Source: a virus. Taken from it: a DNA stretch of 64,000 nt. Under the pieces are notes generated by a model that did no database searches, was not told the origin of the DNA, and saw only the letters and a program-made list of their open reading frames with translations. This document shows positions 7,000 through 46,106 of this stretch, in pieces. The stretch covers positions 32,001-96,000 of the IMG/VR virus record IMGVR_UViG_3300047510_001668. The stretch is one strand, 5' to 3'. The position numbers and the translations under genes are program-made. Each line of letters begins with the position of its first letter. The first letter of the stretch is position 1.

Positions 7000-7019
7000 T
7001 ATTTATATGTTTATTTATA
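7000..7019 (-). promoter_or_regulatory. Two tandem T4 late promoters (TATAAATA)
   Basis: Exact TATAAATA on the minus strand at 7000-7007 and 7012-7019, upstream of the fibre operon. Confidence 0.8.
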
Positions 7020-7030
7020 ACTGTCAGGCG

Positions 7031-7687
7031 TTAAACTATGGCATCCCACTTTCCCAAGGGGCAGGATGCTGCAGCTAACTGTGTTTTTGTTTTCATGAAA
7101 CACCCACATTCAGTGCACCGTTCAGTTTTGGAGTCGAATTTGTCACAGAATCTACACAGTTCCAATCTACGGTATCCTTCCTTGGCAGATGCCAGTACTG
7201 GTAGTCCTTTGGCGGCATTTTTGCCTGTTTTCCAGATGTCTTTGGCTAGATTTCTGGCTTGATGGAACACAGATGGATATTCTGACAAATCCTCATGAAT
7301 GTACTGCTCGGACTTCAGAACCTGCTCTTGCATCTTCTTACCAAATTTAGCCTCGTAGTACTCCAATCCTTCTTCCATCATCTTGTACGCCGTGTCAATA
7401 TCATGTTGCACATCATCTATGCAGTTGGTGGGACCACGCCAAAATGCCACGTTCAGGTTGTTGGGAAGAAAATAGTACAGTGAATTGGTCAACACTCTAG
7501 GGAAGGGCATGGAATCCTCTTGAAAACACATGGAGAACAACCCCACTGGTCGTGGATGTTTCTGCACTTCTTCCTTCAATTTTTCATGTAACACATTGTT
7601 GTCACAGTGTTCCATCACGAAAAACAGCACAGGATGATTGGAGGTGTTGATGATGTTGGTGATTTCTTTGTTGGTGTTTGGCAGCAT
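7031..7687 (-). CDS. Hypothetical protein with C-terminal Cys-rich DUF6171-like domain
   Basis: RLELCRFCDKF...CTECGCFMKTKT...SCPLGKW. Confidence 0.65.
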   Translation of the reverse strand: MLPNTNKEITNIINTSNHPVLFFVMEHCDNNVLHEKLKEEVQKHPRPVGLFSMCFQEDSMPFPRVLTNSLYYFLPNNLNVAFWRGPTNCIDDVQHDIDTAYKMMEEGLEYYEAKFGKKMQEQVLKSEQYIHEDLSEYPSVFHQARNLAKDIWKTGKNAAKGLPVLASAKEGYRRLELCRFCDKFDSKTERCTECGCFMKTKTQLAAASCPLGKWDAIV

Positions 7688-7688
7688 C

Positions 7689-9959
7689 TCAGTTTTCTCG
7701 ACGTTCTTCAGGTTTATAATGAGCTATTCTATTATGTAGTATGGGTGATGCCAGTAGCACAGCAGGACGAATGTTACCTTTTCTGGTTTCTTGAAAAATA
7801 TGGCTCATCCAGGTTTGTTCATAAGGATGTTCCCACGTGGTATCCAGAAACACTTTTTGATTGCCTTCTTTTCCCATAATCATGGGCCAATTGGCGTAGT
7901 ACACATCTCCTGAAGCATACAACATCCCATCAAAATAGTCAATCTTTTTGAATTCTGTTCTTGGACAATCTGGATCCAAACCTGTGATGGGTAAACTGTT
8001 GTAATCAGGCCATACACTTGTTCGAACTGCTTGAGGCACGTTGTACCAGGAACATTGAATGTAATTATCCATGAATACTTCTGTGAAAGACAGTTTCAAG
8101 TAATCAAACTTTTCCTTCTTCATGATTTTTTGCACTTTCTGCAACAATCCCGGTACATAGGTTTGTAACCCATTTCGGCAGACATTTATCACAGGGGGTT
8201 GCATTCCCATGTCATCTTCCAAAAAGATGTAGTAGTCACTATCCGACTCTTGAAAATGTTTGGCAGCTAGAAATCTTCCTCGATTGATGCCTAGATTTTC
8301 ATGTGTGATGATGTGTTCAAATCCATATTGTTCACATATCTTCTTGTTTTCCTGTCTTGCTTCTTCATTGGTGGAATTGTCAATCAGGATTTTCCTGGTG
8401 CTGTTCAACCATTCTGGATGTTTTTCATACGTGGATAGCGTATGACGAACCTGTTCAGGGAAATTGAAAGTCAACATGTACAAGGACAATTTCGTGTTGG
8501 ACAAGTCTAAATTCACAGGAGCGAATTTTTTTCGTTTCACTGGAACCGGTTCCAACACCACATTGTCATCAATGACATTTTGTACAAACTTCACAACCAA
8601 TCCATTACCATCTAATGCATATCGACGATACTTCTCAGGATGAAGATAGGACATAATGGTGAATACACTTTCTTCAGTTCCCAAATAGCCTTGATTGATG
8701 CTGCTGGACAATAGTGAGTAGTAGGTGCTATTGGCTTCTCGTATGATGTCTTTATGACCCCCAAATAATCCCCCTCGACATACGTAATTCACAGAGGCAT
8801 CTGACATCTTGTTCATTCCCTTGATGTCGAACCCATGAATTTCTGTATTGGTTTCATACGGATAGGATAGAAACAGGAAAGGATACAAATACATTTCCAA
8901 TTTTTCAAAGAAGTTGCTTTCTGTGAACAGTTTCCCATGTACTGTTTGTGTGATACCTGCGTCCAACCAGATGAAGTAGTCAGTGCTGAAAGGATTCCAA
9001 CACACGCTATCATGCAGAAGAAACATCTTGCTCATCACGATGGGGTTGTAATATTCCAGGGTGGCTTGAGGAGAATTTTTCAACCAACCATGCTCACCGG
9101 TTTGATTCACCCATTTTTCACTGGTTCTGATGGATTGCAATTTATCCCAGAATGGAGAAAACAAATTTTTCACATCATCTAGATTGAAAACTTTAATCAG
9201 TGTGTTGGCAGGATTTCTCCGTTCACGAACAAAATTTTCAAATTGTTCAGGAACAAACACAATCATGTTTTCATCACACTCCAGAAGATGGCTGAAATGT
9301 TCTAGATAATGTTCTGCGTTTCTTCCTGGGCGTTGAATGTCCCATAATCCTGTGACCACAGTGACGTTTTTTCTGTCGCTCTTGTATATCACCACATGAT
9401 TTCCTAGATTTTCCACTCTATGACCTAATGTAAACGCTTCAAATTCTTCCTTGTATTCAATGAACAATTCTTCAGTGCCTGGATATCCTCCAATGTCCTC
9501 AATCACATAGATGCCACCAGGATTCAATCTAGCCCATAAATTTTTCAAGGTTTTCATTTGGTACTTTGGGTCATGATTACCATCATCTATGATGATGTCA
9601 AAACGTAAATGGCTTAGATGATTTTGACATAGCATTTCATTGGATGAATCAAACAGAAGGGTTGTGATTCTGTTTTCTGAAAACATGCAATCATCGGCAA
9701 TGTCCACACCATACACGTGCGCATTAGAGAAATAATCTCTCCATACACGCAAAGACCCTCCTGGGGTGTAGTGACTGTAGTGTTGGGTGTTGCCTTGAAA
9801 ACTACTAGGATGTTCAGGATTCAATGTGCCTATCCCAATTTCCAAGATGGCTTTCACATTGGTTTTTATAGGTTCGAAAATTCTGGAATAGGTACGAGTG
9901 TAACCACTTAATGATTTATCCGTCCCGTATTTCTCCACCAATTCAATTAAGTTGCTCAT
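7689..9959 (-). CDS. Tri-domain fusion: class I SAM (sugar O-)methyltransferase + HtrL/YibB-like glycosyltransferase + GT-A/GT2 glycosyltransferase
   Basis: GTDK, LEIGIG, GVDI, IIIDDGNH, PGGIYVIED (MTase); VTVVTGLWDI, WLDAGI, GGLFGG, TEES (HtrL-like); LIDNS, GINRGR, FLEDD (GT-A). Confidence 0.75.
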   Translation of the reverse strand: MSNLIELVEKYGTDKSLSGYTRTYSRIFEPIKTNVKAILEIGIGTLNPEHPSSFQGNTQHYSHYTPGGSLRVWRDYFSNAHVYGVDIADDCMFSENRITTLLFDSSNEMLCQNHLSHLRFDIIIDDGNHDPKYQMKTLKNLWARLNPGGIYVIEDIGGYPGTEELFIEYKEEFEAFTLGHRVENLGNHVVIYKSDRKNVTVVTGLWDIQRPGRNAEHYLEHFSHLLECDENMIVFVPEQFENFVRERRNPANTLIKVFNLDDVKNLFSPFWDKLQSIRTSEKWVNQTGEHGWLKNSPQATLEYYNPIVMSKMFLLHDSVCWNPFSTDYFIWLDAGITQTVHGKLFTESNFFEKLEMYLYPFLFLSYPYETNTEIHGFDIKGMNKMSDASVNYVCRGGLFGGHKDIIREANSTYYSLLSSSINQGYLGTEESVFTIMSYLHPEKYRRYALDGNGLVVKFVQNVIDDNVVLEPVPVKRKKFAPVNLDLSNTKLSLYMLTFNFPEQVRHTLSTYEKHPEWLNSTRKILIDNSTNEEARQENKKICEQYGFEHIITHENLGINRGRFLAAKHFQESDSDYYIFLEDDMGMQPPVINVCRNGLQTYVPGLLQKVQKIMKKEKFDYLKLSFTEVFMDNYIQCSWYNVPQAVRTSVWPDYNSLPITGLDPDCPRTEFKKIDYFDGMLYASGDVYYANWPMIMGKEGNQKVFLDTTWEHPYEQTWMSHIFQETRKGNIRPAVLLASPILHNRIAHYKPEERREN

Positions 9960-11578
9960 GATTGTATTTTTCTGAAGTAGTAGTGTTCAATAATTAAACT
10001 ATCCAACTGTGTTTTCTCTAAAATCGTGAAGGCATCTTGCACTGTGGATAATATAGGTTTTCCATCCACGTTGAATGAGGTGTTCAACAATACTCCTATA
10101 CCTGTTTGTTTCTCAAACTCAGTTAACAAATCATATAACCAAGGATTCTGTTCCCTGGTCACAGTTTGCACACGAGCGGTGCCATCCACATGTGTGATGG
10201 CTGACAGCTTTTCCTTCCATTCCTCACGTACCTGAGGACAGAAGGACATCCATCTGGATTCTTTGTCCCACTGAAAATATTTGTTCACATCCTCCAGACG
10301 AACCACAGGTGCGAAAGGACGATACCATTCTCTGTGTTTCACTTTGGCATTCAGAATATCCTTCATCATGGGGATGGATGGGTTACATATGATGCTTCTG
10401 TTTCCTAATGCACGTGGTCCGTGTTCCGACCTCCCACGAGCTACACCTATAATTTTACCTTGAACCAACTCATTTACGATGTCCACATCATCCAGAAAGT
10501 GGGAAGTGAATCTGACATTGCTGTTTTGTATATAGTAAGAAAGATTGTCCAAGTCCAACAATTCAGTTCCTGAATAGGTGGTGTCCGCGGCGTGTACGGG
10601 TTTCATGTGATTCAACAAAATACCTAGCGCCACACCACAGTCATTAGGATCAGGACCCACGAACACATCTCGGTGGAATTCTTCTACTAACCGCGTGTTC
10701 AGCAATATGTTCAGACCACAACCGCCAGTCATGCCAATCGGTAATGTGGGATATTCTTCCATGAAGGGAACAGCCACCTCCAGGAAACTATCCTCAAATG
10801 CACGTTGGGACGTGGCTGCTATGTCCCAGGCTAACTGACCTTCCAAACGTTCAGTGGTGGTGAATTTCACTCCTATCTTCTCACCTAACTCATCCACGTG
10901 AGTTTGAAAGTTCAGCCCATCTAAATTGGACTTGTAGAATTCCATGAATGCAGGCATCCACACCTGATTAACCACACCATAGGAAGAAAGACCCATCAAT
11001 TTACCAGGATACACCAGATTACCATCACCCAAACATTCAAACTTGATGTCTTTCAGATAGTTGCCTAGTGCCATGTATGGGAACCCTAAATCATAATAGA
11101 CATGAGTGCTATCTATGTTGGGATTGTTGACTTGTTTCAGTAGTTTCGGTGACTCACCACGAACACAGTAATAGATGTTGAACTTGCCATCATTGCCTCC
11201 TCCATCAAAAGAAAACACCAACATTTCTTGATGAGGTGATTGATAGAAACAACCAGCAGCATGTCCTTGATGATGCAAACAATGAATGTAGTTTTTTGCA
11301 GGAATGAATTGTTCCAACTGATGTTTTTCATAGATGATGACATCAGAATTCAAATAATAGCAGTTTTCAAATTGTTCTATGCCAAGCTTGTTCATGATCC
11401 ATTTAGGAATGAACTCGGCGTAAAACAACAGGTCCTCAGTTTTAGGACACTTGTATTGTGCCAACCCGCTGTTTTTGTAATTCAGAAAACGTTCCAGTTC
11501 CAACACCATAAGGATTTCATTGTTTTCTTCCACCACGTATGCGGCGTTATGGGAACCGTAAAAAGAAATATTGGCCAT
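9956..11578 (-). CDS. O-carbamoyltransferase, NodU/CmcH/TobZ family
   Basis: GSHNAA, ELERF, HHQGHAA, DGGG, GKLMGLSSYG, GGCGLN, SEHGPRALGNRS, KHREWYRPFAP, HVDGTARVQTV, LLNTSFN; start trimmed to MANIS at 11578. Confidence 0.93.
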   Translation of the reverse strand: MANISFYGSHNAAYVVEENNEILMVLELERFLNYKNSGLAQYKCPKTEDLLFYAEFIPKWIMNKLGIEQFENCYYLNSDVIIYEKHQLEQFIPAKNYIHCLHHQGHAAGCFYQSPHQEMLVFSFDGGGNDGKFNIYYCVRGESPKLLKQVNNPNIDSTHVYYDLGFPYMALGNYLKDIKFECLGDGNLVYPGKLMGLSSYGVVNQVWMPAFMEFYKSNLDGLNFQTHVDELGEKIGVKFTTTERLEGQLAWDIAATSQRAFEDSFLEVAVPFMEEYPTLPIGMTGGCGLNILLNTRLVEEFHRDVFVGPDPNDCGVALGILLNHMKPVHAADTTYSGTELLDLDNLSYYIQNSNVRFTSHFLDDVDIVNELVQGKIIGVARGRSEHGPRALGNRSIICNPSIPMMKDILNAKVKHREWYRPFAPVVRLEDVNKYFQWDKESRWMSFCPQVREEWKEKLSAITHVDGTARVQTVTREQNPWLYDLLTEFEKQTGIGVLLNTSFNVDGKPILSTVQDAFTILEKTQLDSLIIEHYYFRKIQS

Positions 11579-11580
11579 GG

Positions 11581-12492
11581 TTACACTAGAGGCTTCAAAA
11601 AGAAGTGAGAGAAGGAAATTTGACCTGGTTGAAACGCGTTGGTCCAATCTTCATGATAGAACGTATCAAACACCCAATTTTTGAACCAGGTTCTGTGTGT
11701 AGCATTCACATAGGCCATGATGGACTGGTCACTACACACTTCATTAGCAGACAACACCTGTTCTATAACATTTTCACATGTGTTCAAGTATGGAAGCAGT
11801 TTCTCGGAAGACCCTCCAAAAAATCCTCCCACAGGGTGAGTGGACTGATAATCTACATTTATATTCAATATTTTATTGAAATTTGCAGGTGAATCATCTG
11901 ACGTAGCTCGACAGAGATTTATGATGCCATCACCTGCATACTGATTGATACCATCCAATACACTGGGAGTGAATGCCTGGTCATAATGATACACTTTGTA
12001 TTCGTTATCTTGGAAATTTTGCGGATAATGCGGGAACTCAAGCTCACTTCCATACCGACTAGAAAATGATGGAAACAATCCTGTGTGTGATAATCCAGAA
12101 TCAATCCAATACATCATGGTGTTAGGCTTATGTTCCATGCCTAGGAATAGAAATTTCATCCAGTACACCACTGTGGGCCTTGTATAGAATCCCACAGCTT
12201 CTGGACTGTTGTATTTTTCTTTCTTACTGGTACGTATGGCGTACACCCGGTCTTGGTATGGATTGTTTTCCAATTCATAGATTTTGATGGACAAATTCTG
12301 TAAGTTGAATGTTTCTTTCAATTCCACCAATTGATTGTATCCTCTATCACCTGGATCTGTGTAGCACACGATTTCTCCCATGTTACTGATGGTTGCCAGA
12401 GAATATTTGTACCATCGGTCGCGGTTCACCTGACCCCAAAAGGGCTCCCCTGCGTGGAACGGATAGTAAGAAGTTACCAGTTTTGTTTTCAT
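11581..12492 (-). CDS. HtrL/WlaTC-like glycosyltransferase (second, stand-alone copy)
   Basis: LVTSYY, WMKFLFL, YWIDSGL, VGGFFGG, SDQSIM parallel the middle domain of 7689-9959. Confidence 0.6.
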   Translation of the reverse strand: MKTKLVTSYYPFHAGEPFWGQVNRDRWYKYSLATISNMGEIVCYTDPGDRGYNQLVELKETFNLQNLSIKIYELENNPYQDRVYAIRTSKKEKYNSPEAVGFYTRPTVVYWMKFLFLGMEHKPNTMMYWIDSGLSHTGLFPSFSSRYGSELEFPHYPQNFQDNEYKVYHYDQAFTPSVLDGINQYAGDGIINLCRATSDDSPANFNKILNINVDYQSTHPVGGFFGGSSEKLLPYLNTCENVIEQVLSANEVCSDQSIMAYVNATHRTWFKNWVFDTFYHEDWTNAFQPGQISFSHFFLKPLV

Positions 12493-13727
12493 AGTTTGTG
12501 TTCTATCCGTTCAGCCCATCCTCGAGATTCACTATAGGCCCACGCCACCATTCGTTTTGGTTCTTTTTCAAAATACTGAAAATATTCTTCATAGTGAACA
12601 GGAATGTTCTGTGTTAAAAAAAGTTGTAGTTGATGTCCTTCAATGCTCTTAGTATGGACAGCTTTACCATCTTCATCATCAAATGCCACTAGGATGGATT
12701 TATAATCATCCGCTGGCAATTCATTTCTATTTATTGTGACTAGATGATAGAAAGATTTAGACCAGGGACTATCAGCAGGAGTGGGAGGATATCCATTATG
12801 TAATGTGTGCTTCTGTACCGATTTATTTTTAAAATTCACACCTGCATAGGCTTCATAATCTTCAATGGTTCTGGCCGTGCCTAAATCATATCCAGACAAA
12901 TCAAATCCATTGTCTTCCACTCGGAACAATTGGCGAATTTTTGCTCGAGCAATGTTCTGTTTTTCACCCCAATTCACACCCAATTTACTATCATCATCCC
13001 ACTTCAATTTTCCAGCACGTTCTTCTCTCATGGTGGAATGCCATATCACCAACTTATGAGGATGAAACATGTCATACCCATGTGTGTATGAACGCACCGT
13101 CAGATTGATTTCTTCACCACTGAAGTAGATGTCTGGGTCATGGAGAATTTCCTTGGCCCACTCACTTCGCGCAAAACAGAAATGTCCGGATAGAAATCTA
13201 CTCATGGGAGGTTCCGTCATGGTCTCCCAGCCGTGTAACAATGAGGGTCTGATGAAAATGGTACCATGGGGATAAAAACATGCAAATTGTTGTTGCCATG
13301 GCTCCATGGACCTGCCATCTGGATCATTGAATGGGTCATACAATGGGAGATAGGCTGCTAGAATAGGTTTGTGCCCTTTCTGTTCCAGTTGTTGATGCAT
13401 GTCAATCAACGTTTCATCCCAATGTTTAGCGAACCGATGATGAGAATCCAACTGTAGAATGTAATCCTGGTCAGTCAACAACTTCTCATTGATTTGAGCG
13501 CGCGCCCAAGGGAGCCCTTGTGCTTCTGTGTACAACACATCCATGATATGAAATCTGGCATCATTTCGATATTCATCTAGATTGTCGAATCCATCCTCAG
13601 GATGATATTGTCTGCAAATACCAAAATGCACTCTGTCCGGATGTTTAGCCTTGTTCAATGCATCTTGAATGGTGGGGACCAGCTCAGGATCCCGATAGGC
13701 AGGGAGGTGTAATAGTATAGTTTTCAT
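12489..13727 (-). CDS. GT60-type (PF11397 GlcNAc) polypeptide/hydroxyproline alpha-GlcNAc-transferase, paralog 2
   Basis: LHLPAYRDPEL, AQGLPWAR, LQLDSHHRF, FLSGHFCF, YFSGEEINLTVRSYTHGYDMFHP; start trimmed to MKTIL at 13727. Confidence 0.85.
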   Translation of the reverse strand: MKTILLHLPAYRDPELVPTIQDALNKAKHPDRVHFGICRQYHPEDGFDNLDEYRNDARFHIMDVLYTEAQGLPWARAQINEKLLTDQDYILQLDSHHRFAKHWDETLIDMHQQLEQKGHKPILAAYLPLYDPFNDPDGRSMEPWQQQFACFYPHGTIFIRPSLLHGWETMTEPPMSRFLSGHFCFARSEWAKEILHDPDIYFSGEEINLTVRSYTHGYDMFHPHKLVIWHSTMREERAGKLKWDDDSKLGVNWGEKQNIARAKIRQLFRVEDNGFDLSGYDLGTARTIEDYEAYAGVNFKNKSVQKHTLHNGYPPTPADSPWSKSFYHLVTINRNELPADDYKSILVAFDDEDGKAVHTKSIEGHQLQLFLTQNIPVHYEEYFQYFEKEPKRMVAWAYSESRGWAERIEHKL

Positions 13728-14950
13728 AATGTACCTTTGATGGGGTCCAACCAACCGTTGGAATGAGTCTGTGGCCATACCACCCAGGATTTGGCTTCCA
13801 CATTGGAGTAGAATTTTCTCCAGATTTGCACGAATTTATTTTCTGGATCCTGAGTCATGATTCGATGTATTTCTTCAGGTGAGGCATCTTCTCGGTGTAT
13901 TTCATTACCTTCTGCATCTTTAAATGCCACAGCCCAACAAATGTAATCTTTTTCAGATACACTAGGACGGTAGACATCTATGCAGTATTTCTTGTATCCA
14001 GATAACTGAGCTTCATAATTTTCCAAAGGCGTGGGAGGATTCTTCTCTTCCACTGTGTGTTTATGAACACGCCGAGTAAGAAATTCAATACCAGCATATC
14101 TTTCATACTCTTGTAATGTTCTACTAGTTCCTAATCCATAGGTTTCAATAGGCGTGGCAGGTTCATCCACACCCAACAATTTTCTGTTTCGTTCTTTAGC
14201 CTTTTTGTCCTTCTCTGACCAGTTGTTGTCAGCCCAATGTTTGGACTTGTCCTTTCTGGTGTATTCATGCCATATGTACACCTTGTGTGGGTGAAACAAA
14301 TCATACCCATGAGTATAGGCACGCACAGCCAAAGAGATTTCCTCCCCATGAAAATAGTATTCTGGGTCATAAGGAACGTTTGTACAAAATTCACCTAAAG
14401 TGAAAATGTAATGTGCTGAAAGAAACCTGGCTGGGATGGGGGCGTGTAGCTGTGTATGATTTGGTATCGTGCCAGGTGTGAAATGCACCACGCCATCAGG
14501 TGCAAATCTATCGAAATTCAATTTCCAAGGTTCTTGGCCTCGTTCTTCCTTGCCTGGTGTGTAGGCGGTGGCGTAGGCAGTCAACAACGGTTTCTCATGG
14601 CCGCTGGATTGCAAGCCTTGCAACATCTTCACCAACTTGATGTCCCAGTGTTTGTCAAATCTATGGTGAGAATCCAACTGGAGATAGTAGGTTTCACCTT
14701 GATACAATTTCTGCATCTCATGACGGGCCCAACACACACCCTGGGACAACTTGTAGTCCACATCCACAATTTTGAATTGTGGATGATTCCTGTATTCTTC
14801 TATGGTGTCCCAGGTGTCCTCTGCGGCATGTTGCCACATGATGCCAAAATGCAGCCGTTCTGGAAAAGCTGCTTGTTCCAAACAATTTTTTATGGTAGCC
14901 AACAATTCAGGGTCACGGTAGGCAGCAATGGCAATGAATATTGTGTTCAT
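13724..14950 (-). CDS. GT60-type (PF11397 GlcNAc) alpha-GlcNAc-transferase, paralog 1
   Basis: TIFIAIAAYRDPEL, SQGVCWAR, YYLQLDSHHRF, FLSAHYIF, YFHGEEISLAVRAYTHGYDLFHP. Confidence 0.87.
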   Translation of the reverse strand: MNTIFIAIAAYRDPELLATIKNCLEQAAFPERLHFGIMWQHAAEDTWDTIEEYRNHPQFKIVDVDYKLSQGVCWARHEMQKLYQGETYYLQLDSHHRFDKHWDIKLVKMLQGLQSSGHEKPLLTAYATAYTPGKEERGQEPWKLNFDRFAPDGVVHFTPGTIPNHTQLHAPIPARFLSAHYIFTLGEFCTNVPYDPEYYFHGEEISLAVRAYTHGYDLFHPHKVYIWHEYTRKDKSKHWADNNWSEKDKKAKERNRKLLGVDEPATPIETYGLGTSRTLQEYERYAGIEFLTRRVHKHTVEEKNPPTPLENYEAQLSGYKKYCIDVYRPSVSEKDYICWAVAFKDAEGNEIHREDASPEEIHRIMTQDPENKFVQIWRKFYSNVEAKSWVVWPQTHSNGWLDPIKGTL

Positions 14951-14975
14951 ACATCCTCATAGTATCATTTTCAAT

Positions 14976-14983
14976 TATTTATA
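14976..14983 (-). promoter_or_regulatory. T4 late promoter driving the glycosyltransferase cluster
   Basis: Exact TATAAATA immediately after the stop of the mucin-like gene, 26 nt upstream of the first GT60 start. Confidence 0.8.
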
Positions 14984-17900
14984 TTAACATCCTGGGTTGT
15001 TTATGTCAATCACCTGACCACCAACGTTGGTTTGTGCATTGTCACCATTGGCATATTGAATGTATTGGCTTGCGATGCTACCTGAGCAATTGCTGTTGGT
15101 GTACAGATAGCAATTGATTCCTAGAGTGAAACAATCAGAGTATGATTGGTATGGATAATTACCCACCTGACAATCATTTATACCAGTCACATATTCAAAG
15201 GATCCAAGGTTGTAACAGGTGACTGCTGAAGGTGTGGGTGATGGTGTCACGCTAGGTGTTGGTGTTACAGGAGGTGTGGGAGATGGCGTGGTGGAAGGTG
15301 TTCTGGTAGGTGTTATGGATGGTGTGATGCTGATGCTAGGTGTGGTGCTTGGTGTCACACTAGGTGTTGGTGTTGGACTTGGGCAGGTGGATGGACCACC
15401 TGTCACCATGTAGGTACCACCATTGTTGCCGTAAGTCCAATATTGTCCGTTGTTTGTGTTGTATCCTACATAACCGCTGGCACCTAGATTGTAATTGACG
15501 GTTAGTGCAGCACTAGTGTACCCAATACAACCTGTGGTGAGTGCGGCAGAGCAGGTTGCATTGAAGTAGATTGGGTCACCATTGCTAGTACAAACCTGAG
15601 TTAAGTCTGTGGATACATCCAACCGTTGACCTTGAGAAGTTGGTGTTGGTGTAGGGGTGGGTGTGCGAGTCACCGAAGGTGTGACACTAGGTGTGGTGGT
15701 GTTACTTGGTGTGACAGTTGGTGTGATGCTTGGTGTCACAGATGGTGTTACCGATGGTGTCACTGTGTTACTTGGTGTTCTGGTTGGTGTGATGCTTGGT
15801 GTTACAGATGGTGTGACTGAAGGTGTGGCAGTGTTACTTGGTGTTCTGGTTGGTGTGATGCTTGGTGTTACAGATGGTGTGACTGAAGGTGTGGCAGTGT
15901 TACTTGGCGTGATGCTAGGTGTGACTGAAGGTGTAGCTGTGGTACTTGGTGTTATGGTTGGTGTGATGCTGATGCTAGGTGTGGTGCTTGGTGTCACACT
16001 TGGTGTTCTGGTAGGTGTTGGTGATGGAGTTGGTGATGGGCAGGTTTCTTGAGTGCCATAAGCTGTGAAATTGCCAGGTGAACCATCATACAAGAAATAC
16101 ACACCTTGTGTTGTGGTGGCATAACCAGCCACTTCAAAGGCAGATGTCAATTGAATATCATTGTACAACTTACAACCAGCTCCAAAATTGGTGTAGCAAG
16201 AAGTGTTCACATACTTTTGCACATATGTGGCACCTGAGAACGCACATATTTGTGTATCAACTTCTGCAAAGTGTGCTAGTTGTCCTGCTGAAGATGTAGA
16301 TGGTGTTACAGAAGGTGTTACGCTAGGTGTCACACTAGGTGTAGCTGTGTTACTTGGCGTGACAGATGGCGTGATGCTTGGTGTCACAGATGCAGTCACA
16401 CTAGGTGTTGCTGTGATGCTAGGTGTGATGCTAGGTGTCACACTAGGAGTAGCTGAAATTGAAATGCTTGGTGTGGTAGATGGTGTGATGCTTGGTGTCA
16501 CTGAAGGTGTGGCAGTGTTACTTGGTGTCACACTTGGTGTCACACTTGGTGTCATGCTAGGTGTTGGTGATGGACAGGTTTGTTGAGAACCGGTTACTTC
16601 GTATGTGCCACCATTGTTCTCATAGCGCCAGTAAGTACCAACAGCGCCAGGCTTATATACCCAACCTGCAATATTAACAGGATTGGTTAGACCAGCGTTG
16701 GTGTATAACCGGCATCCAGCTGATATGGTGGCGGCACAGGTGGGATTGGCGTAGTATGGATCACCTCCATCAAGACAAGCATCCGCTTCAGTGGCAGCTA
16801 ACCGTAGGAAAGCACCTGGTGTTGTTGGTGAAGGTGTGACTGAAGGTGTTTTTGAAGGTGTGACTGATGGAGTTGCTGTTTCAGATGGTGTGATGCTAGG
16901 TGTCACTGAAGGTGTGATGCTAGGTGTCACTGAAGGTGTAGCAGTTTCAGATGGGGTTACACTTGGTGTTGCTGTTTCAGATGGTGTGATGCTAGGTGTC
17001 ACTGAAGGTGTAGCAGTTTCAGATGGGGTTACACTTGGTGTTGCTGAAGGTGTGGCACTTGGAGTTGGTGATGGGCAGAATTGCTTACTACCCACCACTT
17101 GACTGAATGTGTAATCCCAATATTCACCTTGGATGGTTGAAGCGAGACCGTCTACATTGTACACTGTCAACAATTGAATTTCATCATACAACACACATCC
17201 CGCACCAAATGATGCTCCTGCACAACTTGGGCTGGTGTATTTCAATACTGTGGTACCAGTAAGTGAACAAATGTCAGCTTCATAACTGGCAATGTAAACT
17301 CCGGAACCAGCAGGTGATGTGGATGGTGTCACGCTTGGTGTCACACTAGGTGTGGCTGAAATGGATTCAGATGGTGTGATGCTTGGCGTGATGCTAGGTG
17401 TGATGGAAGGACTGGCGCATGTATATGGTCCAAGAATTGCTTCGTAACTTCCACCATTGTTACCATAAGTCCAGTACTGACCCACAGTACTGGTGGTGTA
17501 TACATAACCATCACCTGTGAATGAATTAGTTAACCCTGCATTTGTGTACAACTTACATCCGGTTGTGAAGGATGAGGCACAACTGTTGTTGATGTAATAT
17601 GGGTCACCTTGGTCTGCACATACTTCACCGATTGTGGCTGCAAATCTAGCTTGCAACACACCCGGGCTGGTGGGTGAAGGTGTTGTGGAAGGTGTTCTGG
17701 TAGGTGTTGGTGTTGGATCAGGAGTTACAGAAATGGAAGGTGTTACTGAAGGTGTTATAGATGGTGTTCTGGTAGGTGTTGGTGTTGGGTCAGGTGTAGG
17801 ACATGGCTGTTGTGTACCATAGGCCTGATAGTTACCTGGGCTACCACCATACAGGAAGTACACACCTTGAGTTACCGTGGCATAACCATCCAATTCAAAT

Positions 17901-19219
17901 GGTGTAGTTAAAGCACCATCATCGTACAACTTACAACCAGCTGTGAAGCTAGTGTAACATGTGTTGTTAACATACTTCTGCACATAGGAGGCACCGCTGA
18001 ATGAACAGATGTCAGCTTCATAGATGGCAAAGTGTGCCAAAGAAGCTCCTGCTGATGTGGAAGGAGTTACAGATGGTGTGACAGACGGAGTAGCTGAAAT
18101 GGATTCAGATGGTGTGATGCTTGGCGTGATGCTTGGTGTTGCTGAAGGTGTGGCACATGTGAATGGGCCTCCTGTTACTTCCCAACTTCCACCATTGTTC
18201 TGATAGTTCCAATACGTGCCCACGGTGCTGGTGGTGTATACGTACCAAGGACCAGAGCCAGTTAACTCACCATTATCTACACTATTAGTTAATGAAGGAT
18301 TTGTGTATAGCTTACATCCTATAGTGAATGTCGTGGCACATGAAGCATTCACATAGTATGGGTCACCTTGGTCGGCGCAAGCATCATTGATGGTGTAAGC
18401 CAACCGTGCGACATTGGAGCCATTGGTAGATGGTGTTGGGGTGGGTGAAGGAATTGCGCAAGAAGTTGGTCCGGATAGTACGCCGGATGCCACTTGATAA
18501 TAATTACCTGAACCGTCACCATAATAACCATTAGATGCCATCACACTACAATCAGGTTGTGTGTATGTTTCGATGCCTCCTCCACTCACATAAAGAGTGA
18601 TGGCTACAGGTGCCGCACAAGCAGATGCAATAGAAGCTTGAACCGTGGACACAAGACCCACAGTGGACCCATAACACGGTGTAGGTGTTGGAGTTGGAGT
18701 TAAGCTAATCGTGGGTGATGGAGAAGGACAACTTTGTAATGTTCCATATGTTATGAAATTACCAGGAGTGCCATCATACAAGAAATATGAGCCCTGAGTC
18801 ACCGCGGCATATCCACCCACTTCAAATGGTGTGGTTAAAAGATTATCATCATACAACTTACATCCAGCTGTAAAGCTGTTGTAACATGTGTTGTTTACAT
18901 ATTTTTGTACATAGGTGGCACCTGAGAATGAACATATATCAGCTTCATAAACAGCAAAATGTGCCAATTGAGCGGCAGCACTTGTTGATGGAGTTATTGA
19001 AGGAGTGATGCTAGGTGTAGGAGTGATAGCAAATGTGTGGTCATACCCATAAAACTCACTCATTGCGTGAGGAGCTATTGCATCCGGCTTAGCTGGACTA
19101 TCATTGTTTATCCCGGAGGTAGATAGTGATGCTAAACTGGAATTGGCAGCAGTAGGTGATAATCCCTTTTCAGAGTTGATATCACTGATTTTAATTTCCC
19201 CGCTCGCAACTATGGCCAT
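14984..19219 (-). CDS. Mucin-like fibre-tip/adhesin protein: ten Cys-rich ~75-85-aa domains separated by (T-P-S-V/I)n linkers
   Basis: N-terminal MAIVASGEIKISDINSE...MSEFYGY resembles the fibre-attachment N-termini found after S74 fibres; many TPS/TPT repeats; domain cores C-x~15-C-x~7-C(K/R)LY. Confidence 0.75.
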   Translation of the reverse strand: MAIVASGEIKISDINSEKGLSPTAANSSLASLSTSGINNDSPAKPDAIAPHAMSEFYGYDHTFAITPTPSITPSITPSTSAAAQLAHFAVYEADICSFSGATYVQKYVNNTCYNSFTAGCKLYDDNLLTTPFEVGGYAAVTQGSYFLYDGTPGNFITYGTLQSCPSPSPTISLTPTPTPTPCYGSTVGLVSTVQASIASACAAPVAITLYVSGGGIETYTQPDCSVMASNGYYGDGSGNYYQVASGVLSGPTSCAIPSPTPTPSTNGSNVARLAYTINDACADQGDPYYVNASCATTFTIGCKLYTNPSLTNSVDNGELTGSGPWYVYTTSTVGTYWNYQNNGGSWEVTGGPFTCATPSATPSITPSITPSESISATPSVTPSVTPSTSAGASLAHFAIYEADICSFSGASYVQKYVNNTCYTSFTAGCKLYDDGALTTPFELDGYATVTQGVYFLYGGSPGNYQAYGTQQPCPTPDPTPTPTRTPSITPSVTPSISVTPDPTPTPTRTPSTTPSPTSPGVLQARFAATIGEVCADQGDPYYINNSCASSFTTGCKLYTNAGLTNSFTGDGYVYTTSTVGQYWTYGNNGGSYEAILGPYTCASPSITPSITPSITPSESISATPSVTPSVTPSTSPAGSGVYIASYEADICSLTGTTVLKYTSPSCAGASFGAGCVLYDEIQLLTVYNVDGLASTIQGEYWDYTFSQVVGSKQFCPSPTPSATPSATPSVTPSETATPSVTPSITPSETATPSVTPSETATPSVTPSITPSVTPSITPSETATPSVTPSKTPSVTPSPTTPGAFLRLAATEADACLDGGDPYYANPTCAATISAGCRLYTNAGLTNPVNIAGWVYKPGAVGTYWRYENNGGTYEVTGSQQTCPSPTPSMTPSVTPSVTPSNTATPSVTPSITPSTTPSISISATPSVTPSITPSITATPSVTASVTPSITPSVTPSNTATPSVTPSVTPSVTPSTSSAGQLAHFAEVDTQICAFSGATYVQKYVNTSCYTNFGAGCKLYNDIQLTSAFEVAGYATTTQGVYFLYDGSPGNFTAYGTQETCPSPTPSPTPTRTPSVTPSTTPSISITPTITPSTTATPSVTPSITPSNTATPSVTPSVTPSITPTRTPSNTATPSVTPSVTPSITPTRTPSNTVTPSVTPSVTPSITPTVTPSNTTTPSVTPSVTRTPTPTPTPTSQGQRLDVSTDLTQVCTSNGDPIYFNATCSAALTTGCIGYTSAALTVNYNLGASGYVGYNTNNGQYWTYGNNGGTYMVTGGPSTCPSPTPTPSVTPSTTPSISITPSITPTRTPSTTPSPTPPVTPTPSVTPSPTPSAVTCYNLGSFEYVTGINDCQVGNYPYQSYSDCFTLGINCYLYTNSNCSGSIASQYIQYANGDNAQTNVGGQVIDINNPGC
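15781..15907 (-). repeat. 66-nt exact coding tandem repeat (TPSNTATPSVTPSVTPSITPTR)
   Basis: Identical units start at 15781 and 15847. Confidence 0.9.
16911..17046 (-). repeat. 72-nt-period coding tandem repeat in a mucin linker
   Basis: Identical ~64-nt segments start at 16911 and 16983. Confidence 0.85.
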
Positions 19220-19231
19220 GAACGACTCCGA

Positions 19232-20656
19232 TTACTTATTGCAATTGCACGTATTATTTTCTACTTTTGTATTTAGTTCCTTGATAGCCTCAATTAATAG
19301 TGCAATCACTTTATCATATCGAACAGCCTTGTAACCATCCCAGCGGTCCCGAACTGCCAACGGAAGAACAACTTCCACTTCTTGTGCCACCAATCCCACG
19401 TCATTTCCTGTGAATCCGTGAACTGATTCTAACTCAGGCTTCCAGGTGTAGGTGACACCATTCATAGCCAACACTTTGGTTAATGCGTCTGTGATGTTGG
19501 TGATGTTGTCCTTCAATCGTGAGTCTGATGTGGAAAATGCCACCACATCACCTGCAGCATCAATTCTTCCATTAGTGCCACTTGGTGTGATGCCAGTACC
19601 AACAGCTAACCCTGTACCTGAAACGTGAACTGCACCATACACGGTTAAGCGACCATTCTGGTCAATCACCATTTTCCTGTGATTGTTGTACATGTCGTTG
19701 CCTGAGATGGTTTGATTGGTGCCACCTGTTGCAGGGATGGTGTAAAATTCAATACCATTACCTCCCACAGATGACAACATCATGGAACCACCATTATTTG
19801 TCCCATCACCTATGACAGTGAAATTTCCTGTGGAAGAATCAAACCCTACATTGTAAGCAAACCCACCTTTGTAATCCATGTTGCTACCACTAGGGTCTGT
19901 TCCAAGACTTCCAAATATAGAAGATGACCCCGCTGATACCGTGGACATGAAAGCAGGGCCTGATGTCAAGGCGGCTGAGGTTGAGAAATAGGAACCTTGC
20001 ACACCACCATACAACAATGCCTTGGGTGTGGTTCCATCAGTGGAAAATGCTAGTGCATTATTGGTGCTGGACTTGATAACTAGATTGCCAGCAGAGCTGG
20101 TGTTGTTGTTCAGCACTCCAAATGTTACACCTGCATCCTTCAAGAACACATCTCCATCTTCTGCATCCAGAATGATGTCTCCTGTGGCGTCCACAGTGAA
20201 GTCTGCTGAAGCGTTCACTTGTGCAATGGTGGGTGTTGTGAGAGTTGGGCTGTTGGCAAACACCACACTGCCTGTACCTGTTTCATCTGTGATGGCAGCT
20301 GCCAATTGTGCAGATGTGGCAACCAATGTGTTGCTACTCAAATTGATGGTCTTGTTGGTGAAGGTTTCACTTCCTGACAATGAAGCCAGTTGCAATGCCA
20401 CAGTGCCATTGTAGAACTTCAAGGTGTTGGAATTGTTCCAAACGTCACCTGCCACAGGGGAGGTGGGATTGGTGGCAGATGATGGAAAATTCACACTGGC
20501 ATTGGCCGCGACCGGTGTGTCCAATGTCAACTTGCCCGTCATCGGGATGGTTCCATCCCGTTCTATCTTTTCTGTGTTCAAGTTGGTGAAGTTGGCATCC
20601 ACCTGTGCATTTGTGAGTGGGCCGCCATTCGTTGCTCTGAGTGTAATTGATGCCAT
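19232..20656 (-). CDS. Tail fibre with C-terminal intramolecular chaperone (peptidase S74)
   Basis: MASITLRATNGGPLTNAQVDANFTNLN; C-terminal STSDSRLKDNI...GVTYTWK...GLVAQEVE...AVRYDKVIALLIEAIKEL. Confidence 0.92.
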   Translation of the reverse strand: MASITLRATNGGPLTNAQVDANFTNLNTEKIERDGTIPMTGKLTLDTPVAANASVNFPSSATNPTSPVAGDVWNNSNTLKFYNGTVALQLASLSGSETFTNKTINLSSNTLVATSAQLAAAITDETGTGSVVFANSPTLTTPTIAQVNASADFTVDATGDIILDAEDGDVFLKDAGVTFGVLNNNTSSAGNLVIKSSTNNALAFSTDGTTPKALLYGGVQGSYFSTSAALTSGPAFMSTVSAGSSSIFGSLGTDPSGSNMDYKGGFAYNVGFDSSTGNFTVIGDGTNNGGSMMLSSVGGNGIEFYTIPATGGTNQTISGNDMYNNHRKMVIDQNGRLTVYGAVHVSGTGLAVGTGITPSGTNGRIDAAGDVVAFSTSDSRLKDNITNITDALTKVLAMNGVTYTWKPELESVHGFTGNDVGLVAQEVEVVLPLAVRDRWDGYKAVRYDKVIALLIEAIKELNTKVENNTCNCNK

Positions 20657-20659
20657 TTC

Positions 20660-20857
20660 TTATACCTTAGTAAGAATTTGTTGTAACATATCTTTGATTT
20701 CCATCAGTTCATGCTTGATGTTGTTCACATCCTGTTCCATGTCCTGAATCTTTTGCATTTGTTGTTTTTTTGCCTTGTGGGCACGTATTGCATTGTCATC
20801 TGTGTTCAACAACGCAGATGTTTTTGGGTCACGAAGAAACGTTTCAGAGTATTTCAT
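20660..20857 (-). CDS. Small coiled-coil hypothetical protein
   Basis: ORF track; RDPKTSALLNTD followed by heptads. Confidence 0.7.
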   Translation of the reverse strand: MKYSETFLRDPKTSALLNTDDNAIRAHKAKKQQMQKIQDMEQDVNNIKHELMEIKDMLQQILTKV

Positions 20858-45398: not shown

Positions 45399-46106
45399 TT
45401 AATTCCAGTAATTCACTTTCGCCTTCTCAAAGTGCTTAAGGTTGTTTCTATTCAAGAAGTTGACTATCATGTACCAAATCATTCCAAGATAACCTAGTTT
45501 CTTGAACCTGCGTTCATCTTGTCCAAAGTAATGGTCCACAATCATAAACTTCTTGGCATCATACTGTTTACTCAATATGTAATCTTCGGATGTATCATAT
45601 TTGTTTGGAAATCCACCAAGCTCATCAAACTTGTCTTTTCTGGTCAAAAAGAATGCTCCGATGGCAAATGGAGTTTTCTTGGTCATGATTTTGTTGATGA
45701 GATTGAAACACCAGAAGAAGAACGAGGCACGAAGATGTTCACCGTAATTCTTAATGTTGGCTGTTATCAAGTCCAAATTATATACCACCATCTTGTTTAC
45801 CGCATCATAGATGGTGAAGGGATGAAACAACCTCACATCAGCATCCAAAAACAGAATGTATGGAGTAGTTACCAACTTGGCACCGTTGTTTCTTCCTACA
45901 GATACCGGTCCTCCTGTAATCACTTCAATATTCAACACATCATCATACAATTTCACCACCGAGATAGTATTATCGGTACTATAGGCATCTGCGACAATGA
46001 TACGAGTGTTTCCGATACCCACTTGTTGTGACAAAGAATCAAGTAGATGTCCAATATATTTTTCTTCATTCTTGCAGGGGATGATGATGGTGACTAAATC
46101 TTTCAT
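45399..46106 (-). CDS. GT2 family glycosyltransferase
   Basis: TIIIPCKNEE, VADAYSTD, GRNNGA, LFLDAD, GGFP, SED. Confidence 0.9.
   Translation of the reverse strand: MKDLVTIIIPCKNEEKYIGHLLDSLSQQVGIGNTRIIVADAYSTDNTISVVKLYDDVLNIEVITGGPVSVGRNNGAKLVTTPYILFLDADVRLFHPFTIYDAVNKMVVYNLDLITANIKNYGEHLRASFFFWCFNLINKIMTKKTPFAIGAFFLTRKDKFDELGGFPNKYDTSEDYILSKQYDAKKFMIVDHYFGQDERRFKKLGYLGMIWYMIVNFLNRNNLKHFEKAKVNYWN

Follow-up and report, generated by a model that had tools for sequence, protein, structure and literature searches.

To our knowledge, mucin-type O-glycosylation initiated by glycosyltransferases of the GT27 and GT60 families is regarded as a eukaryotic trait, and we know of phage particles with proven glycosylation only among mycobacteriophages, in which the enzymes are unrelated. 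As reportedly described by Freeman et al. 2023 (Cell Host Microbe), mycobacteriophage glycosyltransferases encoded beside structural genes decorate the C-terminal tails of virion proteins. The characterised GT60 enzymes are polypeptide alpha-GlcNAc-transferases that act on protist mucin-type domains, and their acceptors are Thr/Ser/Pro-rich mucin-type stretches or hydroxyproline (PMC8724618). Among cultured phages, virions of the Xanthomonas jumbo phage XacN1 show glycoprotein bands stained by periodic acid-Schiff (PAS), which the authors tentatively ascribed to ORF328/ORF334, the proteins in the bands not having been identified (PMC5852040). Here we describe a gene cassette of an uncultured phage (virus record IMGVR_UViG_3300047510_001668) that is headed by two GT60 paralogues and lies directly downstream of a gene for a 1411-aa protein with long Thr-Pro-Ser linkers. 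The stretch of DNA analysed, hereafter the window, comprises 64,000 nucleotides and spans bases 32001-96000 of a viral contig of 177,878 bp, whose completeness is estimated at 99%. We consider it rather probable that the locus is a self-contained cytoplasmic cassette for protein O-glycosylation, expressed late, with which the phage sugar-coats its own appendage proteins. The literature on GT60/PF11397 in phages, on O-glycosylated tail fibres and on carbamoyltransferases with hypermodification yielded no description of this system.

As we infer the pathway, from acceptor, sugar and sites to the order of steps and incorporation into the virion, two soluble GT60 transferases (GT60a and GT60b) would take UDP-HexNAc, most likely UDP-GlcNAc, from the host and place the first sugar on Ser or Thr of (T-P-S-V/I)n linkers during virion assembly. 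The acceptors would be the 1411-aa protein encoded just upstream and probably also a 278-aa fibre-like protein with a (TPSV)n tail. An HtrL-like 303-aa protein, together with the HtrL and GT-A domains of a fusion protein, would extend the glycan, and a carbamoyltransferase and a methyltransferase domain would cap it with O-carbamoyl and O-methyl groups. The benefit to the phage may lie in stiff, protease-resistant, hydrated spacers or in an adhesive coat. This proposal builds on the gene content, the enzyme families, the fold and conserved catalytic motif of the lead enzyme, the late unit, the solubility of the proteins and a recurrent pairing with Thr-Pro (TP) linkers. A reading of the locus made earlier from the sequence alone (the sequence-only reading) had also proposed glycosylation of the linkers, and the kinds of enzyme, the late timing and the recurrent pairing support it in part. 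Its placing of the 1411-aa protein at a fibre tip, and the roles it suggested in adhesion, protease shielding or receptor mimicry, are conjectural.

The cassette and the neighbouring fibre genes all lie on the minus strand (Table 1). The genes, the promoter motif and the coupled junctions were found where the sequence-only reading had placed them, whereas two of its start codons had to be corrected: GT60b most likely starts at the ATG at 13727, giving 412 aa, and the carbamoyltransferase at the ATG at 11578, giving 540 aa.

Table 1. Features of the glycosylation cassette and its borders (window positions).
Feature	Position	Strand	Basis
Tail-fibre protein, 474 aa, C-terminal intramolecular chaperone domain	19232..20656	-	Peptidase_S74 1.3e-13
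Beads-on-a-string protein, 1411 aa, candidate glycan acceptor	14984..19219	-	translation, segmentation
T4-type late-promoter motif TATAAATA	14976..14983	-	abuts linker-protein stop codon, 25 nt upstream of GT60a ATG
GT60a, 408 aa, candidate initiating polypeptide HexNAc-transferase	13724..14950	-	PF11397 3e-73
GT60b, 412 aa, paralogue of GT60a	12489..13727	-	PF11397 4.5e-50
HtrL/WlaTC-like putative glycosyltransferase, 303 aa, weak assignment	11581..12492	-	TIGR02192 2e-4
NodU/CmcH-family carbamoyltransferase, 540 aa	9956..11578	-	Carbam_trans_C 8.3e-66, Carbam_trans_N 1.6e-22
Three-domain fusion, 756 aa: methyltransferase-like (1-157), HtrL_YibB (199-444), GT-A/GT2-like (~445-756)	7689..9959	-	domain matches
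Protein of 218 aa with C-terminal Cys-rich zinc-ribbon-like motif, last gene of unit	7031..7687	-	phrog_13558 9e-15
Two tandem TATAAATA motifs, 4 nt apart	7000..7019	-	start of next late unit, after last cassette gene

The exact late promoter that the sequence-only reading had reported directly after the linker protein holds up well. The motif TATAAATA occurs nine times in the window compared with 0.8 copies expected, a number reached in 0 of 100 shuffles, and when positions were compared with the lists of open reading frames (ORFs), at least seven copies were found 10-40 nt upstream of a gene start on the same strand. GT60a has GAGGA as its ribosome-binding site. The motif stands at both ends of the cassette, and positions 7031-14983 therefore read as one late transcription unit; the cassette is thus predicted to be a late-expressed unit of its own with a T4-type late promoter. 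Sigma-70-like promoters were not enriched in the region (34 seen, 35 expected), and of the terminator-like sites, which were more frequent than expected (23 versus 12.9), none lay at a cassette boundary. The genes overlap by ATGA at the GT60a/GT60b, GT60b/303-aa gene and carbamoyltransferase/fusion junctions and are separated by gaps of 1-2 nt at the others, an arrangement that points to translational coupling. Beyond the lower border, the listed TTG start of the next ORF (6999) abuts the second TATAAATA and cannot be the real start, which must lie further downstream.

None of the six cassette proteins has a hydrophobic segment, indicating that the enzymes are soluble. The locus contains no nucleotide-sugar genes, as the sequence-only reading had noted, and PF01370 and PF00483 are matched nowhere in the complete 178-kb sequence. 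With no epimerase or NTP-transferase family match in the genome, the donors must come from the host.

Both lead enzymes are clear members of their predicted family, scoring 247.8 and 171.5 bits against PF11397 (cut-off 21), and a genome-wide profile scan recovers both; GT60a also matches phrog_24687 (1.6e-139). GT60a consists of a GT-A catalytic domain (approximately residues 1-300) to which a beta-rich C-terminal domain of roughly 100 aa is appended. It is 39% identical to GT60b over the full length, C-terminal domain included, and no family was matched by this last domain in either paralogue. In an alignment of 44 sequences, D93-S94-H95, H228 and G202-E203-E204 are invariant, and this set includes the conserved DxH metal-binding motif. 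The AlphaFold2 model of GT60a (predicted local distance difference test score, pLDDT, 92.6) shows a GT-A fold, and a Foldseek search of the model against the PDB placed polypeptide GalNAc-transferases (ppGalNAc-Ts) at all of ranks 1-44. Judged from the model, GT60a thus appears closest in fold to polypeptide transferases rather than to polysaccharide GT-A enzymes.

The phage enzymes resemble the protist GT60 proteins (the Dictyostelium mucin-type initiating enzyme, Skp1 Gnt1 and Trypanosoma cruzi TcOGNT) in the PF11397 domain, the GT-A fold, the DxH motif and the absence of a ricin-type lectin domain, and Gnt1 is soluble and cytoplasmic, as the phage GT60s are predicted to be. They differ in being encoded by a phage, for the bacterial cytoplasm, in the additional conserved beta domain of some 100 aa at their C-terminus, and in occurring as a pair of paralogues that opens a tailoring operon. 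The polypeptide GalNAc-transferases of animals and Toxoplasma (CAZy GT27) form the sister family and are the closest kin in structure. The phage GT60s are only 10-15% identical to them, have neither a membrane stem nor a ricin lectin domain, and would act in the cytoplasm, not in the Golgi.

The same cassette is present in XacN1 (ORF334-ORF330), in Xoo-sp13 and in the Stenotrophomonas phages CM1 and RAS14. The order in XacN1 is GT60, carbamoyltransferase, a 286-aa ORF, one further ORF and an HtrL-GT-A protein, and the cassette is close to baseplate genes. The 286-aa ORF fills the slot of our 303-aa protein, with which it is matched by position only, and identities between XacN1-type cassettes and this phage are 37-42% and 37-39%. 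The PAS-stained bands of XacN1 virions thereby offer an indirect experimental precedent. In contrast to the locus described here, XacN1 has a single GT60, its HtrL protein lacks a methyltransferase domain, and there is no adjacent long Thr-Pro-Ser protein, a single Pro-Thr (PT) linker of ~50 aa being located in ORF325 (3313 aa), at a distance of about 9 kb. Chloroviruses and mimiviruses offer a broader parallel in virus-encoded cytoplasmic glycosylation of structural proteins for which the host glycosylation apparatus is not needed, although these are eukaryotic viruses with other enzyme families, linkages and target proteins; the authors of the XacN1 study drew the same analogy (PMC5852040).

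The candidate acceptor is built like beads on a string. It has 11 globular segments, of which the N-terminal one is 64 aa long and the other 10 are small domains of 64-86 aa. The segments are connected by (T-P-S-V/I)n linkers, each 17-143 aa long, which together account for 575 of the 1411 residues (41%) and consist mainly of T (28%), P (25%) and S (21%). The DNA that encodes the linkers consists of diverged repeats whose basic period is 12 nt. Most of the small domains contain four Cys, and domain alignments assign 8 of the 10 to two alternating, related types. Few proteins contain the bead domain: a profile search of 1.84 billion representatives found 11 at E<=1e-3. In the five multi-bead proteins that we inspected, the beads are mostly strung on linkers rich in PT or T; one of the five, P0126, has tandem beads without such a linker. 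A model of the bead domain, which is only moderately reliable, matched no known fold among solved structures.

The TPSV repeat of the 1411-aa protein recurs about 75 kb away in the 278-aa tail-fibre-like protein (phrog_4527, 1.5e-15), encoded at G000:C1:124216-125052 (-), outside the window (L269:4216-5052). This protein has an N-terminal motif common to fibre families and a C-terminal tail of ~40 aa of TPSV repeats, and is probably a second candidate acceptor. This tail follows the same logic as the C-terminal tails reportedly decorated in mycobacteriophages; the differences are that other glycosyltransferase families and other hosts are involved, that the substrates are the capsid and tail tube there and appendage-protein linkers here, and that the glycans are proven there and predicted here.

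Two surveys bear on whether GT60 genes and TP-linker genes occur together in relatives, a check that the sequence-only reading had put forward, and their outcome does not refute the proposal. The first survey took GT60 as its starting point and retrieved 19 related viral loci, of which 13 were distinct and included upstream sequence. An ORF with a long TP(T/Q/N/S) linker ends within ~60 nt of the GT60 start in 8 of these 13 loci (L006-L009, L011, L012, L014 and L020), and in two others (L005 and L018) a TP-linker protein is found downstream only, within or beside the cassette. L030, a 123-kb contig from a separate look-up, encodes three PT-rich proteins immediately upstream of its GT60. The globular, non-linker parts of the TP-linker neighbours are unrelated between lineages, suggesting a functional rather than a merely inherited link.

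The second survey started from the repeats. We fetched 120 viral loci solely for TP[ST]x repeats and compared them with 118 collagen-repeat loci as a control, collagen-type repeats being also typical of fibre genes. GT60 was present in 8 of the 120 TP-repeat loci and in none of the 118 controls (Fisher p = 0.007), and some cassette gene was present in 12 of 120 versus 0 of 118 (Fisher p = 0.0004). In five of the eight GT60-bearing TP-repeat loci, the repeat was encoded on the same strand within ~2 kb of GT60. Contigs binned as giant-virus metagenome-assembled genomes ('GVMAG') are the source of one GT60 locus (L007) and of several loci fetched for their repeats.

A weaker version of this pairing is seen in bacteria, where 354 species-genome loci encode GT60 homologues. 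Neighbourhoods were counted in the best 80 of these 354 loci, and in 18 of the 80 a TP-rich segment lies on the same strand as the GT60 homologue and no more than 2 kb from it. The density of TP-rich segments falls 2.5-fold with distance from GT60, from 0.89 to 0.36 per 10 kb. In four bacterial loci (L304, L318, L297 and L310), proteins with a twin-arginine-like signal and a long PT-rich tract are encoded directly beside the GT60 homologue, which fits cytoplasmic glycosylation before export by the twin-arginine (Tat) pathway; these genomes are GC-rich, and some TP-rich ORFs elsewhere in the loci may be frame artefacts. In addition, one Saprospiraceae locus encodes a bead-on-PT-string protein near its GT60 homologue.

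The tailoring genes were classified with varying firmness. For the 303-aa protein, the HtrL likeness claimed by the sequence-only reading stands as a weak one. The TIGR02192 match (2e-4) is far below the cut-off, BLASTP aligns the protein at 3e-7 with residues 244-396 of the 756-aa fusion, which belong to its HtrL domain, and a Pfam search gave no match. Its Atlas feature score to an HtrL cluster is 0.97, 51% of the cluster members carrying PF09612, and homologues hold the same cassette slot in L011, L012, L014, L020 and L045. The Atlas clusters related to this protein are partly labelled Nucleocytoviricota; such labels, like the GVMAG bins above, could be binning noise or could point to a wider host range of the cassette.

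The carbamoyltransferase was assigned as previously read from the sequence, with both domains present: the N-terminal Kae1-like and the C-terminal YrdC-like domain (PF02543 and PF16861) score 80.8 bits (cut-off 24) and 221.2 bits (cut-off 27), respectively, and the protein matches phrog_1601 at 1.4e-119. Against the NodU model itself it reaches 6e-43 and 147.5 bits, far under the equivalog cut-off of 1000, and it is therefore best taken as a predicted member of the family, not as NodU.

The 756-aa protein had been read as a fusion of a methyltransferase, an HtrL domain and a GT2 glycosyltransferase, of which the first two parts are upheld and the third falls below threshold. Residues 4-157 match the PDB structures 3ssm (MycE; 6.7e-15) and 8ia9 (TylE; 1.7e-13), with Pfam Methyltransf_24 just under its cut-off (22.7 versus 26.3). 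The L027 homologue of this domain matches TylF, and methyltransferases that are annotated next to glycosyltransferases in Mycobacterium prophages share 29-31% identity with the domain. The HtrL_YibB domain (PF09612, 5.8e-14) scores 52.8 bits against a gathering score of 24.1 and far below the TIGR02192 equivalog cut-off, so that it is a family member, not YibB itself. The C-terminal domain reaches 0.0044 and 17.4 bits against GT2 (PF00535), below the gathering score of 23.3, and 2 of 12 homologues match GT2 at E up to 1. Its Atlas model resembles GT2 clusters (TM 0.58-0.59 by query and 0.67-0.80 by target), and many large viral Atlas clusters share the HtrL, methyltransferase and GT2 architecture. 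We therefore describe this domain as GT-A-like and not as a demonstrated GT2 member. Across related cassettes, residues 198-756 of the fusion are 37-63% identical. The likeness to the O-methyltransferases MycE and TylE, together with the NodU/CmcH family, indicates tailoring enzymes of sugar-directed kinds.

The same families also suggest a different target, and this is the first of several points that weigh against protein glycosylation. Relatives of HtrL and NodU are best known from lipo-oligosaccharide (LOS) and Nod-factor chemistry, not from proteins. The cassette could accordingly remodel a host envelope glycan, such as lipopolysaccharide (LPS) or LOS, capsule or exopolysaccharide, during infection, for example in superinfection block or progeny release, with the Thr-Pro-Ser protein an unmodified flexible-linker fibre that shares the hypervariable region. 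The names of the HtrL/WlaTC and NodU-type families derive from LOS and Nod-factor pathways, and the glycosyltransferase clusters of marine and jumbo phages are usually given a role of this kind (PMC12801897, PMC7824862). Relatives without TP-linker neighbours fit it as well: L010 and L027 carry the cassette beside Ser/Thr/Gly-rich fibres instead of TP linkers, and L013, L022/23 and L026 carry it with no TP-linker neighbour. We nevertheless regard envelope remodelling as unlikely. All six proteins are soluble, and a priming phosphoglycosyl-transferase, a flippase, a polymerase and a lipid-carrier enzyme are all absent from the locus; the lead enzymes are nearest in fold to polypeptide transferases; the unit has a late promoter and is located among structural genes; and GT60 is enriched beside TP repeats relative to the collagen-repeat controls.

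Further points against glycosylation of the linkers concern the pairing itself and the status of the acceptor. No TP-linker neighbour was seen in many Acidobacteriaceae GT60 loci, and no GT60 was found within the few kb fetched for 90% or more of the TP-linker loci sampled, which indicates that such linkers do not need this enzyme in their vicinity. That two genes are neighbours does not establish that one product acts on the other, and related phages have inherited their synteny from common ancestors. When searched against PHROG and Pfam, the TP-linker proteins matched nothing but the low-complexity linker family phrog_15511, which provides no independent proof that these are virion proteins; the 1411-aa protein is a candidate virion or appendage component on the strength of its gene context.

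A second rival keeps a protein substrate and changes the residue or the protein. The residue that the GT60s glycosylate might be hydroxyproline, as for Gnt1 on Skp1, or the sugar might go to other virion proteins, among them the capsid, the sheath or the collagen-like fibre, and not to Ser/Thr of the linkers. About 30 kb away on the other side of the cassette, at G000:C1:13818-20933 (-), outside the window (L271:4818-11933), the genome encodes a collagen-repeat tail fibre (Collagen 1.8e-33, with Peptidase_S74). It is followed on the same strand by genes for DUF6445, a 605-aa GT2, a 218-aa GT2 and a prolyl-hydroxylase-like 2-oxoglutarate (2OG)-Fe(II) oxygenase (PF13640, 2.4e-12), a region that may constitute a second module of a fibre plus modifying enzymes, hydroxylating and glycosylating collagen-like repeats. 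This oxygenase and DUF6445 lend the hydroxyproline reading some support, as do the Pro content of the linkers (25%) and the fact that one characterised branch of GT60 acts on hydroxyproline. The oxygenase, however, is located ~30 kb from the cassette and beside a collagen-like fibre that has its own GT2 genes. No homologues of the oxygenase or of DUF6445 were found in the GT60 loci examined for them, and oxygenase homologues were present in three of the 118 collagen-repeat loci and in one of the 120 TP-repeat loci. We thus judge a hydroxyproline or other virion target to be improbable.

The C-terminal GT-A domain of the fusion and the context of one relative raise a third rival, in which the cassette hypermodifies phage DNA, yielding a glycosylated, carbamoylated or methylated modified base, in order to evade restriction. 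Both observations also count against the glycosylation of appendage proteins. Four of 12 homologues of the domain weakly match TAGT (TET-associated glycosyltransferase; best 3.4e-4). In the 149-kb contig of P0107, a GT60 pair and an HtrL protein are located between QueC, PTPS and GTP cyclohydrolase I (queuosine-type), dCTP deaminase and a family-B DNA polymerase, a context that fits DNA modification better than those of the other relatives do. Phage glycosyltransferases are, moreover, classically DNA-directed (PMC12619734). Against this, a search of the 99%-complete genome gave no match to the thymidylate-synthase/dCMP-hydroxymethylase family, TET/JBP or TAGT. The cassette is a late unit among fibre genes, whereas base modification must accompany replication, and its lead enzyme is nearest in fold to polypeptide transferases, with GT60 linked to TP-repeat proteins. 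DNA modification is therefore very unlikely in our estimation, and O-glycosylation of appendage proteins is the reading that we favour.

The baseplate genes of this genome indicate a T4-like phage, and tail-fibre and baseplate genes (PHROG matches) surround the cassette. The nearest cultured relative is distant, the gp6-like protein being 39% identical to that of Pelagibacter phage HTVC008M, and a megablast search of the locus against 50,697 phage records gave no nucleotide-level match, indicating that there is no close cultured relative. The 474-aa tail fibre matches 24 PHROG families, mostly of tail-fibre or baseplate type (best 3e-37), and its gene is spaced 12 nt from the linker-protein gene, with no promoter motif in between. 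Next to it, at 20660-20857 (-), is a 65-aa ORF with a coiled-coil look, below the 80-aa limit of the ORF list. Its start overlaps the stop of a gene for a 799-aa fibre-like protein (TAATG), and its stop lies 3 nt before the 474-aa tail-fibre gene.

The 218-aa protein at the end of the unit was considered as part of the glycosylation chemistry and rejected as probably not involved, its Cys motif also being found in the cassette-free control loci L172 and L200. These two unrelated viral loci contain two copies of the motif each, and it looks like a mobile small zinc-ribbon module; a match of the 218-aa protein to DUF6171 (7e-4) is below the cut-off. Elsewhere in the window, a lone 235-aa GT2 glycosyltransferase (1.1e-20) is encoded at 45399-46106 (-) within a DNA-metabolism block, flanked by a metallophosphoesterase and a PD-(D/E)XK nuclease, with PhoH, DNA ligase and gp32 close by. 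Outside the window, at G000:C1:98260-102576 (-) (L270:1260-5576), a row of genes encodes products with N-terminal Sec or lipoprotein signal peptides, including a 447-aa lipoprotein-like protein with a long Ala/Ser-rich tract and others with lipase- or nuclease-like motifs. The signal peptides look Bacteroidota-like and may hint at the host.

Taken more widely, the chances seem to us about even that bacteria and phages possess cytoplasmic mucin-type O-glycosylation at Pro-Thr/Ser linkers, with an initiator homologous to eukaryotic GT60/GT27. In phages it would produce carbamoylated and methylated bottle-brush spacers in appendages, in bacteria it would act on proteins exported in folded form, some of them through Tat, and it would constitute a prokaryotic and viral counterpart, perhaps the root, of the eukaryotic system. 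The GT60 family comprises more than 7,000 metagenomic proteins. If the proposal is correct, this very large family would represent a widespread, undescribed sugar-coating of Pro-Thr/Ser linkers inside bacterial cells, with a bearing on the purpose of the ubiquitous 'PT linkers' and on how the eukaryotic enzymes arose. In practical terms, it would provide a compact set of soluble enzymes for making mucin-like glycoproteins in E. coli, and for the phages themselves it would bear on host recognition, particle stability and encounters with antibodies and proteases.

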